Origin: a virus
Lineage: Duplodnaviria; Caudoviricetes
Length of the DNA: 54,206 nt
IMG/VR virus record: IMGVR_UViG_3300030104_006890
Location: 1-54,206 of that record
Reading direction: 5' to 3' (one strand)
The notes under the pieces were generated by a model, which did no database searches, was not told where the DNA came from, and worked only from the letters and a program-made list of their open reading frames with translations. Shown here piece by piece: positions 47,852-53,384 of this stretch (position 1 is the first letter of the stretch; each line of letters starts with the position of its first letter). The position numbers and the translations under genes were made by a program.

Positions 47852-48347
47852 ATAAGGCACACACTAGAGCATCGTAAGCATCCATATTGCGTTTATCCCA
47901 TAATCCTGTCTTAGTTAATTTAACATATTCTTTTAAATTATACAAGCAATTTATTTCTTTTTTTACAAAATCTTTTGCTGATACACCCTTTACTCTGGCT
48001 TTTCCAAAAAGGTGTTTTCTTGCTGTCATGGGATTTACACCATCTATTATTTCACCATAGGCAAATTCTAAACAGTAAGTCAATACAGCATTAAACTTTG
48101 CTAACTTTATTATTGTTTGTTGTGATGTTCTACCACGCATAAAACCAGAAAGACTGTCCTCTATGTTGATTTTATCAATATGTTCAAACGGATCTATATC
48201 TGTAATAATATCCATTGTTAATTGAACTTTATCTCTGATAGACTTTTCTTTTTCAATGGGTATAAAACCCATGTCTATAACCTCTGAGCCGTCAACAAAT
48301 GCATATCCTACTGTAGTTGTTGAGGCATCCAAACCTAATTTTTTCAC
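47844..48347 (-). CDS. RuvC-like Holliday junction resolvase
   Basis: LGLDASTTTVG, IED and DAYDA acidic catalytic pattern. Confidence 0.8.
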   Translation of the reverse strand: MKKLGLDASTTTVGYAFVDGSEVIDMGFIPIEKEKSIRDKVQLTMDIITDIDPFEHIDKINIEDSLSGFMRGRTSQQTIIKLAKFNAVLTYCLEFAYGEIIDGVNPMTARKHLFGKARVKGVSAKDFVKKEINCLYNLKEYVKLTKTGLWDKRNMDAYDALVCALYE

Positions 48348-48907
48348 TTATAAATATTTTTCCTATTAATCTTCAAATAGTCTTTTGCCATTTTACGGCC
48401 AAATCTCTCTGCTTTCTTTTCAAAGTAATTATCATCATGAGCATCCCCACCTTTCGCAACTGCCTTATTCATCTCCATCTCATATCTATCTTTATACTTT
48501 TTCTTTCCGAACTTTTGAGCATCTTTAGCATGGTCTATTTCATGAAAAACTGTAACTAAAAAATCTTTGAAATCTGATGTTGGTTCTATGTAGATAGTAT
48601 CTGAATCTACATTATAATCTGCTTTAGTTCCTTTTCTTTTAGCAAACACTACCTTTGATTTTAGTCCAGCTTTCTTGACTATTTGTGTAGCCGTATCATA
48701 AAAATCTACTCTTTCTTTTATTTCGTTTTTTGGTGATATTCTAAAATTCACAACCTTTTTTCCATTTATTGTTGGCATACCATGTTCATCTTTTCCTATG
48801 GATTTAACAACAACTTTTTTGTTTTTGAATCTACCAGCTAATATAACATCGCCAACCTTAACATCCAAGACAATTTTTTCAGTAATTAAATTTAGTAACT
48901 TTATCAT
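48344..48907 (-). CDS. Putative zinc metallopeptidase (HExxH) with MIKLLNLITE leader
   Basis: VFHEIDH followed by a distal FEKKAE; two modules separated by EIKE. Confidence 0.7.
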   Translation of the reverse strand: MIKLLNLITEKIVLDVKVGDVILAGRFKNKKVVVKSIGKDEHGMPTINGKKVVNFRISPKNEIKERVDFYDTATQIVKKAGLKSKVVFAKRKGTKADYNVDSDTIYIEPTSDFKDFLVTVFHEIDHAKDAQKFGKKKYKDRYEMEMNKAVAKGGDAHDDNYFEKKAERFGRKMAKDYLKINRKNIYK

Positions 48908-49353
48908 TTTCTTGTATTTGCAATTACGAATACACCAGTAAAAGTTGCTATGTAACTTATACTATATACAAAATCTCCTTTGGTCAATTCAAAAATTACT
49001 GGCAATTTTTCTTTTATTTTATACCCTCTAAACTTTTTCAAATCTTTTTTAAAATCATCTAATGAATACTTGTAAGATTTTGAACCTGGATTTACCCCCT
49101 CATCAAATTGATAATCAATTTCCATACCAGTTATCTTTTCTCTTTTAATTGGTTTATCAAATCCGGCTGGCTCAGATACCTGAACATTTAAAGTTTGGGT
49201 TTTTTTCTTCAATTTACCATATCCAAATTCTTTAGACTTCTTTTTGAATACCCTATCAAAGTCCTTTAAAAATGGTTTAGAAGCACCATCTTTAGATAAT
49301 CTCAATACTCGTTCATCTACTGTCTCTGTTATTAAGTCTCTTAACTTAATCAT
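48904..49353 (-). CDS. Hypothetical protein with MIKLRDLITE leader
   Basis: Start moved to 49353 to match the leader family and to avoid overlapping the upstream small gene. Confidence 0.75.
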   Translation of the reverse strand: MIKLRDLITETVDERVLRLSKDGASKPFLKDFDRVFKKKSKEFGYGKLKKKTQTLNVQVSEPAGFDKPIKREKITGMEIDYQFDEGVNPGSKSYKYSLDDFKKDLKKFRGYKIKEKLPVIFELTKGDFVYSISYIATFTGVFVIANTRK

Positions 49354-49489
49354 TTGATAATTCCTTACTGGCATAATCAGAAAACAAGTCAGGTATAAAT
49401 GCATGTATCAATAAAGCTAATGATAATTTCATAGCTCTACACCAATGTTTTAAATACCCCACTTGTTGTTCTTTCAGATGTTTTATCAT
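49346..49489 (-). CDS. Small hypothetical protein, 47 aa
   Basis: MIKHLKEQQVGYLKHWCRAMKLSLALLIHAFIPDLFSDYASKELSND fills the gap, overlapping the genes on both sides. Confidence 0.7.
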   Translation of the reverse strand: MIKHLKEQQVGYLKHWCRAMKLSLALLIHAFIPDLFSDYASKELSND

Positions 49490-49806
49490 ACTGCTCGATA
49501 TCGTTTACCTTTAATAATTACTTCTTTGACTTTTTTCTTATCAGCATTCTTTTTTCTTTTTGGACTTTCTTCATCATCTTTAGCTGCTGGATGACCATGA
49601 GCTTCCACCTTCAATGGTTTTAAATGAGATACATCCACATTCTCATAAACTTCATTTCCAAATTTTATGTGAACTCGCTCTACTTTACCATCCTCTGTTA
49701 AAGAGTGCCAAATTACTTTACCAACACCTTTACTTTCATACTTTGGGGACCCCCAAGTTGCGTGGTGAAATCATTGATGTTGAACTGATTTATTATATTT
49801 ATCCAT
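49486..49806 (-). CDS. Putative selenoprotein, 106 aa, with in-frame UGA (Sec) at codon 12
   Basis: GAGGT RBS and ATG 2 nt after the upstream stop. Reads MDKYNKSVQHQ-UGA(49773-49771)-FHHATWGSPKYESKGVGKVIWHSLTEDGKVERVHIKFGNEVYENVDVSHLKPLKVEAHGHP...RYRAV and ends TGA TAA. A SECIS-like hairpin follows the UGA. Confidence 0.7.
49734..49770 (-). promoter_or_regulatory. Putative bacterial-type SECIS element
   Basis: After the UGA: UUUCA CCACGCA ACUUGGG-GGUC-CCCAAAGU A UGAAA. Apical loop GGUC at +20 to +23; basal UUUCA/UGAAA pairing. Confidence 0.65.
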
Positions 49807-49808
49807 AA

Positions 49809-50312
49809 TTACCTCGTTGCTAATATTCTCTTTTTATATTCATCTCTTGATGGTTCTATTTTACCAGACACCACATCAAGAACAAAATTTATTGTGACAT
49901 CATTTGCCACCAAATCACCACACCTAGCCGTAACAGTTCCCTTCAACCCATCTATAATTATAGAACCCGTTACCTTGGCAAAGTCTTCAAATAATTGTGT
50001 ATCTATAGTGTGTTGTCCATCTTTTGGTTTCCACTCAGGTACAGTATATTGTGAATAACAAAAATCTCTGTGGTCTGCTGGAAATGAATGTGGTATTGAC
50101 TCGTCTATTATGTAGACCTTATCTAAATTTTTTACATAGTATGGATCTTTAAGTGTAACATCATACCAACCATACTCTTTATCACTTTTGTATGTTTCTT
50201 CACCCAACATATCCATAAGTGTTTTAAGATACTTGTCAGCATCCTTATTTTTGAAGACACCAGCCTCTTCGTTTATCCGTTGTTCAGATATTAAATTCAT
50301 TAACTTAATCAT
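49809..50312 (-). CDS. Hypothetical protein with MIKLMNLISE leader
   Basis: 167 aa ORF; contains HSFPADHRDF and ARC motifs. Confidence 0.8.
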   Translation of the reverse strand: MIKLMNLISEQRINEEAGVFKNKDADKYLKTLMDMLGEETYKSDKEYGWYDVTLKDPYYVKNLDKVYIIDESIPHSFPADHRDFCYSQYTVPEWKPKDGQHTIDTQLFEDFAKVTGSIIIDGLKGTVTARCGDLVANDVTINFVLDVVSGKIEPSRDEYKKRILATR

Positions 50313-50315
50313 CTT

Positions 50316-50774
50316 TTACCCCTTATCCAACGATTTATCTATTTTTATATCATCTTGTCTTTCCACCATTACCATTATATGTTCTGGTATGAATAGTGTT
50401 TCATCCATAAAATCATCATCAATTAATTTTGCTACATACCCTAATTGAAAAGATGCCGTATTAGTTATCTCAATACCATGTTTTATAGGATCGTGATTTA
50501 ATGCTTCTTTATTTACAACAGCTTTTTCCATCTCGAATATATGGTCAATTCCTTTAGCAGCCTCGACAATATACTTTGTTGCTTCTTCGTTATCTACTTT
50601 ATCTAATTTAGTAAATAAACTTACAGCTGAAGCACATATGTCAAAATGTTTGGTTTCATATCCCTTTACAGTTATTTCCTTACCACTTCCAAAATGAGAT
50701 GGAATTTCATGTTCAGGTTTTTTATCAACCTTAAAATCATCTTGTTCTCTTAGTAAATCTTTTAATTTAATCAT
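50316..50774 (-). CDS. Hypothetical protein with MIKLKDLLRE leader
   Basis: 152 aa ORF; ATGA overlap with the upstream kinase gene. Confidence 0.8.
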   Translation of the reverse strand: MIKLKDLLREQDDFKVDKKPEHEIPSHFGSGKEITVKGYETKHFDICASAVSLFTKLDKVDNEEATKYIVEAAKGIDHIFEMEKAVVNKEALNHDPIKHGIEITNTASFQLGYVAKLIDDDFMDETLFIPEHIMVMVERQDDIKIDKSLDKG

Positions 50775-51517
50775 TTTATTCCTTTAAGTATAAGTTGTCT
50801 TTCAACCCATTTTTTACCACGATAGTTTTTAACTGGTTTTTTGATAAAAGAACCAATACCCTTTTTAACCAACATATTAAATTTTTTGGTAGCTTGTTTT
50901 TCACTTAAGGTATTTGAATTATCGACCATCATAAAATTCGCATTTCCAAAAAGACCTTGAAAGTATATTTTATTTTTTTGAACATCATTCCAAGATTCTT
51001 CTACTAATTCAGGATTAAGTTTTCTTGGTCTTTCCATATTTCTTTTTTGTGCTACTTCTAAATCTGTATGGACAAATACCATAAAACAATCATATCCTAT
51101 TTCTTCTAATTCTAATTTTCTCTTTCGTATCTTATCAAACTTATGACCTGTACCGTCTATTATCATACCCAAACGACCTTCCATATAAAGTTTTTGTCTA
51201 TCCCTAGTCAACTCTTTTGCCCTACCTCGTAAGCCACTATAATCTTCGTAATCAGGATCTGTCAATTGTCTAAATAGTTCTTCTGGCATATCGTCTAAGT
51301 CTGTACCAAATCCATACTTGTTTAACATACGAACTAATTCTTTATCTTGATTTACAAGTTTCAATCCATAAGCCGATACATTAACTTTCTTTGGTATTCC
51401 AAATAATCCTTGTCCTACAAAACCTTTACCACTACCAGGTCCTCCAGCAAGAAATACAGCTTTAAGTATGCCAGGATCTAAAACACCTTCTAGTAGTATT
51501 TGTTTTAAATGTACCAT
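50771..51517 (-). CDS. P-loop kinase (zeta-toxin/AAA_33-like) with MVHLKQILLE leader
   Basis: KAVFLAGGPGSGK Walker A, IIDGTG Walker B-like and RNMERPR lid. Confidence 0.85.
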   Translation of the reverse strand: MVHLKQILLEGVLDPGILKAVFLAGGPGSGKGFVGQGLFGIPKKVNVSAYGLKLVNQDKELVRMLNKYGFGTDLDDMPEELFRQLTDPDYEDYSGLRGRAKELTRDRQKLYMEGRLGMIIDGTGHKFDKIRKRKLELEEIGYDCFMVFVHTDLEVAQKRNMERPRKLNPELVEESWNDVQKNKIYFQGLFGNANFMMVDNSNTLSEKQATKKFNMLVKKGIGSFIKKPVKNYRGKKWVERQLILKGIK

Positions 51518-52167: not shown

Positions 52168-52495
52168 TATTCATTCTCCTATGATATAGTTTAGTTCCAT
52201 CAAATTGCCACTCATTATCTTCATCAGGTATTCCTAACTCGTGAGTAACAATAACACCTCTTGTACGACCTAATACAGATAATGGATGGTCAGGCCACAC
52301 ATCGGTGTCTGTTAATTCTTTTTGAATATCAGCATACAGTTCTAACTCTTCCCACAATCGATGAGCAAATTGTTTTTCTGCTTTTAATTCTTCTAATTCA
52401 ATTCTTTTTTCAAATCTTGGAATAGCTATAGCACTTAGTATACCAATCAATAAAATCACTACTACAAGCTCGAATAAAGTGTAGCCTTTATTCAC
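52100..52495 (-). CDS. Type IV pilin/pseudopilin-like protein
   Basis: Class III signal KG|YTLFELVVVILLIGILSAIAIPRF. Confidence 0.9.
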   Translation of the reverse strand: MNKGYTLFELVVVILLIGILSAIAIPRFEKRIELEELKAEKQFAHRLWEELELYADIQKELTDTDVWPDHPLSVLGRTRGVIVTHELGIPDEDNEWQFDGTKLYHRRMNNEIWYFEYDSNTFYLSEHPTKL

Positions 52496-52941
52496 TAGAT
52501 TTCTCCGATTATATATTCCTCATATGATGGACTATCTTCGTCCACATCACTAATAATAAATAGTTTAGTTATATATCCTTGCTCAGATGTATCTGATTCT
52601 ATTTCATATTTAAATGGATTTTGATTGGAATTAAATGGCAAATCTCCACTAAACAAATGATTAGGAGTTCTACCATCAGATAATACTATTTGACGATATT
52701 CTCCATCTAATAAATTATTTTCTGGCTCTGTAGGAAGTTGAGGATTACCTTTCATATGTGTCTCTTGATAATATCTCAAAAATGTATCTTTTATAATTGA
52801 CATATTGGCAAGATTAATTTGTCGTTGGGTATCCATAGTCACATTACTAAAAGTGGGAATAGCAAATGACATTACTACTCCCACTAATGCAATACTAACA
52901 ACCATCTCTGCCAATGTGAAACCAGCATTTGAGTTTCTCAT
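52495..52941 (-). CDS. Type IV pilin/pseudopilin-like protein
   Basis: Class III signal AG|FTLAEMVVSIALVGVVMSFAIP. Confidence 0.9.
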   Translation of the reverse strand: MRNSNAGFTLAEMVVSIALVGVVMSFAIPTFSNVTMDTQRQINLANMSIIKDTFLRYYQETHMKGNPQLPTEPENNLLDGEYRQIVLSDGRTPNHLFSGDLPFNSNQNPFKYEIESDTSEQGYITKLFIISDVDEDSPSYEEYIIGEI

Positions 52942-52952
52942 TGGTATCCCCT

Positions 52953-53384
52953 CTAATCTACAATAGCTTCTCTAGCACCAATTGAACCAACACCAGCATT
53001 GTCGCCTGTTTGAACCCCCTTATCGTAAGTCCAAGCATAACGAGTGTTATCTTTTCGTTGGTGTGTGATTTTGTTGGTTGTGGTATTGAATGTCCACTCA
53101 CCATCGGTATCAGCATTATCAACATCTGTTGAATCGTATCCTACTGGTACTTGGTCTAAAGCATCAAAAGGATGGGTTGGCCAACTCTTTCTACCATTAT
53201 CAAGAAGTTGTTCAACAGCGTAGTTTTCCAAACCAGCCTTAACAGAAGATATTATTGCATCTTCCGCAGCCTGTTCTGCTTTGTCTACTACACCAACATA
53301 TCTTGGTATAGCTACTGCTGCAAGAATTCCTAAAATGATAGTAACCATTATTAGTTCTATTAATGTGAATCCTTTGTTGTTCAT
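52953..53384 (-). CDS. Type IV pilin-like protein
   Basis: Canonical KG|FTLIELIMVTIILGILAAVAIPRY. Confidence 0.93.
   Translation of the reverse strand: MNNKGFTLIELIMVTIILGILAAVAIPRYVGVVDKAEQAAEDAIISSVKAGLENYAVEQLLDNGRKSWPTHPFDALDQVPVGYDSTDVDNADTDGEWTFNTTTNKITHQRKDNTRYAWTYDKGVQTGDNAGVGSIGAREAIVD

Follow-up and report, generated by a model that had tools for sequence, protein, structure and literature searches.

A candidate selenoprotein gene with an in-frame UGA and a bacterial-type SECIS-like hairpin in large marine phages

The locus and its predicted protein

The DNA analysed here (the window) is a complete viral record of 54,206 nucleotides, a 54.2-kb fragment of the genome of an uncultured large marine phage that is rated 29% complete, has 31-37% G+C and carries every gene on the minus strand. 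Portal, large terminase, an SbcC-like nuclease, primase, RuvC and giant proteins are encoded in it. The closest cultured terminases belong to Microcystis phage Mel-JY01 (54%) and Flavobacterium phage immuto (53%), phages of two host phyla, and neither of these host groups is known to us to use selenocysteine (Sec). Related contigs reach 284 kb, and psbA was absent from the five large related records in which it was sought.

Between a gene ending at 49809 and a small ORF starting at 49489 lies one frame, 49806..49486 on the minus strand, which is interrupted by a UGA at codon 12 (Table 1). An earlier note made from the DNA letters had described its GAGGT ribosome-binding site, the spacing of its ATG from the upstream stop, the UGA at codon 12 and the 94 sense codons without an in-frame ATG that follow, and all of these details are borne out. 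That note had also seen a double TGA-TAA end; the TGA does terminate the frame and overlaps the next start, but the TAA is merely part of codons 1-2 of the next ORF. The first alternative in-frame start past the UGA is a GTG at 49638, leaving 44 codons without any start codon, and the longest conventional ORF in this frame under table 11 is the 50-amino-acid one that begins at that GTG. The small ORF downstream (49346-49489, minus strand) encodes 47 amino acids with a match to DUF6356 (PF19883) just short of the cut-off (E 7.7e-5, 23.2 bits against 24.4).

Table 1. Features of the candidate selenoprotein gene in the window.
Feature	Position	Strand	Remarks
Shine-Dalgarno-like GAGGT	49811..49815	-	4 nt before ATG; overlaps TAA of upstream gene (49811-49809)
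Start ATG	49806-49804	-	2 nt past upstream stop
Candidate selenoprotein gene, 106 codons without stop	49489..49806	-	Translation, homologues, dN/dS
Core domain, codons 1-72	within 49489..49806	-	
In-frame UGA, codon 12, proposed Sec codon (H10-Q-U12-F-H-H15)	49771..49773	-	
SECIS-like hairpin, 17 nt, family register	49741..49757	-	+14 to +30 after UGA; folds, covariation
Lys-rich C-terminal tail, codons 73-106	49489..49590	-	Low confidence in model; pLDDT 47-61 after residue 70
Terminating TGA	49486..49488	-	ATGA overlap with start (49489-49487) of next ORF (49346-49489)

Seventeen diverse members of the protein family share H10, U12, H15, G29, V31, W33-H34-S35-L36, E38, G40, H70 and H72 without exception, and the motif that the earlier note had given for marine phage proteins, HxC..H...WG.G...H...HxH, fits the actual family. 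The tail is variable, and an alignment of C-termini showed other extensions taking its place in relatives. An AlphaFold model has block-mean pLDDT values of 88-96 for residues 11-70, with strands at 8-18, 28-34, 44-49, 52-58 and 62-72 and one helix. A Foldseek search with this model returned nothing from the PDB at E <=0.001, the only matches being generic SH3-like barrels (best E 0.63). Pfam gave for the window protein only Spore_III_AF below the cut-off (E 0.11), and gave nothing above the cut-off for ten homologues with Cys at the site. Among fused or longer homologues the sole Pfam match above the cut-off was ADH_zinc_N_2, in one fused or mis-joined protein, and it was set aside. In PHROGs the window protein matched phrog_764 (E 4.4e-5), over only 84 of 556 profile positions.

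GenBank phages gave no blastn match to 1901 nt of the locus, and no tblastn match to the window protein or to a Cys-form or UGA-form homologue. The one cellular candidate from our contig scan, a Parcubacteria MAG, proved to be a spurious 11-residue match, so no cellular homologue was found, and the nearest ESM Atlas clusters hold viral 'hypothetical protein' entries only. The best reading of the model and searches is that the protein represents a virus-only family with a predicted SH3-like barrel carrying five conserved His and the putative Sec. The conserved residues suggest that the five His and the putative Sec together make up a metal or redox centre.

Long forms of the protein (L035 2941-2975, L036 2880-2915, and P0075, P0080, P0081, P0084, P0085 and P0089) share a further motif, (V/L/A)P(F/Y/H)GSG(M/F/Y), which sits 15-20 residues before H-x-U/C and is repeated in P0081. 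A clade marked by HDCPKHV has P-F-V-P-T-Y-G-K-G-D in its place.

A conserved UGA, coding sequence past it and a Sec/Cys pair

A 61.8-kb viral contig encodes a protein 92% identical to that of the window and has the same TGA. A profile scan of viral contigs found 36 loci, with TGA at the homologous codon in 35 directly and in the thirty-sixth (L036, 28% identity) once its upstream frame was read. Scans seeded with more distant clades added 44 loci, every one of them with TGA; one of these (L055) lies on the same contig as L036, giving 79 related viral contigs in total. With the 12 of 12 metagenome contigs that include the N-terminus, part of which may be the same underlying contigs as the viral records, TGA is thus found in 91 of 91 related contigs, which span 28-94% protein identity. 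In the window's clade, by contrast, the gene's Trp18 is encoded by TGG in 34 of 34 sequences and its Trp33 in 33 of 33.

Synonymous changes are frequent past the UGA, and dN/dS over codons 13-72 was 0.07-0.34 in 11 pairwise comparisons; judged by these ratios, the frame downstream of the UGA is under purifying selection. Codons 13-30, among them that of the invariant H15, vary synonymously while the residues are kept. There are invariant residues before as well as after the UGA, and in other clades the UGA stands 38-50 codons inside a continuous ORF.

The earlier note had called for reads to be checked for TGG or TGT at the site, and neither was seen in independent data: in four public runs from four studies, no variant at 49771-49773 was among the best-supported differences listed, the summed depth being about 150-560 (maximum ~558) in two of these runs. 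The synonymous sites 49768 and 49795 do vary in the same runs. A contig from the RNA library of run X19 (49685-49842) was considered as proof of transcription and is not counted as such, because it has low depth and 21 differences and may derive from DNA.

A profile search of 1.84 billion representatives returned 188 proteins at E <=0.001. Among the 102 homologues, from this and one other database search, that cover the site, the residue is W in 72, C in 29 and R in one. The Cys that the earlier note had expected in relatives at the UGA position is therefore present, and all ten Cys-form viral loci encode it by TGT or TGC in the motif H-x-C-x-x-H, so that the family motif becomes H-x-[U/C]-x-x-H. 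Cys-form homologues are single uninterrupted proteins. Changes between Sec and Cys number at least three on a quick tree, of which the starred branches force only one. Sec/Cys pairing of this kind is the procedure for defining selenoprotein families set out in PMC2398784.

The same note had asked which codon homologues carry at position 12, and the database 'W' turned out to be TGA, not TGG, wherever DNA was fetched, that is in three clades, with the deep branches P0140, P0155, P0169, P0190, P0202 and P0209 lying outside this check. In those clades the 'W' is therefore an artefact of gene calling under code 4. Many other database entries are shortened, beginning immediately past the UGA or from an internal Met. 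In public collections the family is systematically mis-annotated (P0002-P0061 and many of the profile-search matches), as proteins with a code-4 Trp or as post-UGA fragments. The single Arg homologue, P0028, sits inside the UGA clade, and its best metagenome match, 77% identical, has TGA; its Arg would have arisen from TGA by mutation of one base, or else be erroneous.

A hairpin that covaries and co-occurs with the UGA

With the UGA as anchor, the family's sequences align without gaps, and RNAalifold predicts for them one stem of 7 bp (columns 17-23/27-33, or +14..+20 / +24..+30) closed by a 3-nt loop. Across 53 distinct sequences, standard pairs occupy 98.4% of 371 cells, against 44-62.5% when the 3' partner is slid by 1-3 columns. 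The covariation score was 0.828, as compared with 0.321 in shuffles, and double changes occurred in 108 cells where 33 were expected; both values were reached by 0 of 500 shuffles, although such counts overstate independence because the sequences are related. A further measure is not significant: double changes affect six of the seven pairs, a value reached by 37 of 500 shuffles. The first base of the loop (+21) is G in 53 of 53.

More weight falls on the stem sequences themselves, of which at least nine different ones keep pairing in one fixed register: the 5' arms are ACUUGGG, GGUGGGG, AGCUGGG, AGCGGAA, GGCGGAA, GGAGGAA, AGAGGAA, GGAAGAA and AGUGGAA, each with its complement, and the peptides encoded by differing stems include T-W-G-S-P-K, K-L-G-S-P-A, R-K-G-S-S-L and E-W-K-S-S. 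All 34 sequences use GGG for Gly19, whose codon falls within the stem, although GGG accounts for just 21 of the 1138 Gly codons in the giant ORFs of the window. Each of the 91 related contigs has a hairpin in the exact register. The ten Cys-form loci lack it, having 0-4 of the 7 register pairs, and two of them (L045 and L048) fold over 39 nt to -0.4 and -0.1 kcal/mol. When in-frame TGAs with a start upstream and >=40 sense codons downstream were ranked by register pairing, the family TGA came first both among the 56 candidates of the window and among the 95 of its 168.8-kb relative G010. The check on conservation and covariation that the earlier note had proposed thus came out in favour of the hairpin, the stem being kept across the family with compensatory changes.

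No member of the family has a weaker hairpin than the window itself. In the family register it has six of the seven pairs, one G-A mismatch and a GUC triloop, and an alternative fold with 5 bp, a bulged A and a GGUC tetraloop lies at 49756-49743, where the hairpin UUGGG-GGUC-CCCAA of the earlier note is indeed found. Folded alone it reaches -6.7 kcal/mol (z +0.62), a stability that 145 of 200 shuffles match. That the hairpin exceeds chance therefore holds in the family comparison and not for the window's sequence alone, and its significance comes from comparison only. A search of 49600-49900 against Rfam, whose coverage of bacterial SECIS elements is sparse, gave no SECIS match; its five matches were at chance level (E 1.3 or worse).

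The prototype for comparison is the element of E. coli fdhF, whose apical loop is GGUC, and the GGUC/GGUCU loop of the window's clade resembles it. The phage gene has in common with the fdhF type an in-frame UGA, a stem-loop downstream within the ORF, a 17-nt upper stem-loop, a G at the start of the loop and Cys homologues. It differs in being a viral gene of a virus-only family and in its 13-nt spacer, the E. coli spacing reportedly being 11 nt, and in most phage clades the loop has three bases (GGA, GGG or GUC) and a bulged U is missing. An upper stem-loop of 17 nt that binds SelB is described as the minimal SECIS of E. coli (PMC11431864), and conserved guanosines are marked in the apical loop of bacterial SECIS elements (PMC2398784, Figure 7 legend).

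Decoding, precedents and neighbouring genes

A conserved UGA, an aligned Cys, coding past the UGA and a covarying stem-loop with a loop G, sequence features by which bacterial-type selenoproteins are recognised, are all found in this family. With regard to decoding machinery, the window has no tRNA genes, and G010 (rated 95% complete) has tRNA-Ala and tRNA-Pro only. The earlier note had proposed looking for Sec genes in the predicted host or the rest of the phage; on the phage side, no tRNA-Sec scored above the cut-off in the window's record or in ten related viral records (G001-G010), and neither selB nor selD was found in those ten, two of which are rated 95-100% complete. The sub-threshold tRNA-Sec matches proved to be tRNAs of the usual kind, for Leu, Ser, Arg, Asn, Thr, Met and Lys. 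With neither a UGA-reading tRNA nor selB or selD turning up in the phage records searched, the recoding would have to rely on host factors.

We consider it very probable, on the comparative evidence above, that the gene encodes a selenoprotein and that host SelB decodes it by way of a bacterial-type SECIS. This is the reading that the earlier note had put forward, with the SECIS just 3' of the UGA, and the conserved UGA, the Cys relatives and the covarying hairpin lend it support. Further suggestions of that note, namely T4-like relatives, binding of metal and expression coupled to selenium status, go beyond this support. Counting against the selenoprotein reading are the host groups of the terminase relatives, the weakness of the window's own hairpin, the one non-significant covariation measure, the Arg of P0028 and the Rfam outcome. 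We infer the use of SelB and selenium from these features. Host SelB carrying Sec-tRNA(Sec) would bind the 17-nt hairpin that starts 13 nt past the UGA and would deliver selenocysteine when the UGA enters the ribosomal A site, after which the ribosome would melt the hairpin and read T-W-G-S-P-K. The product would be a protein of ~12 kDa in which an N-terminal strand with H10-x-U12-x-x-H15 leads into an SH3-like beta-barrel bearing the invariant W-H34-S-L, with H70-x-H72 on the last strand and a basic tail behind it.

Could the UGA be read without SelB? Of the stop codons UGA leaks most, and read-through of a UGA is used by phage Qbeta. The hairpin might slow or alter termination and allow a near-cognate tRNA (for Trp, Cys or Arg) to read the codon in a fraction of ribosomes, yielding an 11-residue peptide and some full-length protein. 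That precedent, the lack of Sec machinery in the phage records searched and the one homologue with Arg would all be in keeping with such a mechanism. However, the site aligns with the invariant Cys of H-x-C-x-x-H, and Trp or Arg there would therefore destroy the motif; if Cys were inserted, TGT or TGC would do, yet all 91 contigs keep TGA. The size of the hairpin, its spacing and its G-first loop suit a SelB-binding element, and we know of no hairpin-driven read-through signal in bacteria. We regard SelB-independent read-through as improbable. A true stop is considerably less credible still: an 11-codon leader peptide would then be followed by a regulatory or terminator-like hairpin, with the downstream part re-initiated or no gene at all. 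Gene callers do often annotate the downstream part alone, from an internal Met or GTG, but the 44 codons past the UGA lack a start while codons 13-30 among them are conserved, other clades have the UGA well inside a continuous ORF, and the Cys-form homologues are uninterrupted.

A general reassignment of TGA (NCBI code 4 or 25), or a suppressor tRNA of the phage acting late in infection, appears to us extremely improbable. The W at the site in database proteins would fit with reassignment, as would the finding that reading TGA as sense would lengthen all eight TGA-ended genes (of 38 in the window, mostly in ATGA overlaps) by only 0-4 codons. Against this, the five giant ORFs of the window, of 1078-2666 amino acids, contain no in-frame TGA, and the gene's two Trp codons never depart from TGG, just as the site never departs from TGA; no tRNA that could act as suppressor is at hand either, given the tRNA content described above. 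By its sequence, then, the genome is not one in which TGA is reassigned, as TGG is used for Trp, and the earlier claim that any recoding would be local rather than genome-wide is upheld by the intact giant ORFs and by the genes that end in TGA. A single base separates TGA from TGG, TGT and TGC alike, and an error in sequencing or assembly, or a recently inactivated pseudogene, could produce the site in one genome. We give this explanation almost no credence and count it as refuted within the reach of sequence data, because the TGA stands in 91 independently assembled contigs of 28-94% protein identity, no site variant was listed in the four runs where neighbouring synonymous sites vary, and the gene is under purifying selection.

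Taking the selenoprotein reading further, we think it likely that the gene belongs to a selenoprotein family that is restricted to viruses of bacteria, occurs in several large marine phage lineages, depends on host SelB, tRNA(Sec), SelA and SelD, and has interconverted its Sec and Cys forms. Our full-text search of the literature found no described selenoprotein of a virus of bacteria, and in the accessible text of prokaryotic selenoproteome reviews of 2022 and 2026 neither 'phage' nor 'virus' occurs. The viral selenoproteins named in the consulted text of a 2021 recoding review are two poxvirus glutathione peroxidases only, and the fowlpox enzyme is described there as having its SECIS inside the coding region (PMC8310308). 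The glutathione peroxidases of molluscum contagiosum and fowlpox viruses share with the present case a viral gene and host Sec machinery. They are captured cellular enzymes of eukaryotic viruses with a eukaryotic SECIS, whereas the present virus is a phage with a bacterial-type SECIS, and the protein gave no cellular homologue in our searches.

Another comparison is offered by GOS_A and GOS_B, uncharacterised selenoprotein families from ocean metagenomes, of which GOS_B comprises 11 Sec and 125 Cys sequences (PMC2398784). Both resemble the phage family in being marine and uncharacterised and in combining TGA/Cys pairs with a bacterial SECIS, and the GOS data include viral reads. They were assigned to bacteria, however, and the word 'phage' is absent from the accessible text of that paper (PMC2398784). 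The family described here could be the same as GOS_A or GOS_B.

Selenocysteine decoding has so far been known from cells and two poxviruses. If our reading is true, phages exploit the most specialised recoding machinery of their hosts, and the family offers a compact natural SECIS of 17 nt in many variants with which to study SelB specificity. The UGA form of the gene would mark phages of Sec-decoding hosts and could serve as a sequence marker for host prediction, and phage fitness would be tied to the marine selenium supply. It would also follow that standard gene callers mishandle such genes, either by truncation or by silently applying code 4 with Trp at the site.

With regard to the host, 135 complete Pelagibacter genomes are reported to lack selC, and Actinomarina to have the full machinery, in the portions consulted of a recent preprint (10.64898/2026.04.03.716425); SAR11, an abundant AT-rich candidate, is therefore not the host, if the Sec reading is right. 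A run labelled 'organism A' and not 'marine metagenome' (X15) holds 0.37 of the sampled words of window positions 49200-50400 and yields a 239-nt contig identical to 49763-50000. This contig is a possible lead to the host.

Five consecutive genes of the window (48344-51517, minus strand) have near-identical starts: MIKLLNLITE, MIKLRDLITE, MIKLMNLISE, MIKLKDLLRE and MVHLKQILLE. Many homologues of the selenoprotein candidate elsewhere start with MK(I/L)T..QL..II.EE (P0082, P0084, P0092, P0103 and L036). The capsid-targeting peptides of T4 internal proteins end in (L/I)-x-E and are cut off by the prohead protease, and the shared N-terminus found here is like them in its (L/I)-x-E end. By this analogy, an N-terminus of the MK(I/L)T..QL..II.EE type might be a capsid-targeting peptide and the protein might be packed in the head and injected with the DNA, which we think unlikely but worth recording; likewise, the five neighbouring genes that share the N-terminal motif may encode packaged, injected proteins.

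One gene with this shared N-terminus (50771-51517, minus strand) encodes a P-loop protein with Zeta_toxin (PF06414, E 5.8e-8) and AAA_33 (PF13671) matches above the cut-off. The gene at 48344-48907 (minus strand) encodes 187 amino acids with H-E-x-x-H and sub-threshold matches to the zincin-like PF18818 (E 8e-4) and PF20573 (E 1e-3). Further along are two adjacent genes (52495-52941 and 52953-53384, minus strand) with the type IV pilin N-terminal methylation motif PF07963, above the cut-off in both (E 7e-7 and 1.9e-7), one of which also matches a pilin PHROG. Four consecutive giant ORFs of 2161, 1417, 2281 and 2666 amino acids occupy 14395-43503 (minus strand), and one of them has a tail-fibre PHROG match over 90 residues. 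Finally, a related 284-kb record that is rated complete and carries the UGA-form gene (G006) encodes a tmRNA (L096 630-993) with the tag ANDNVEYDYALAA, beside a tRNA cluster.
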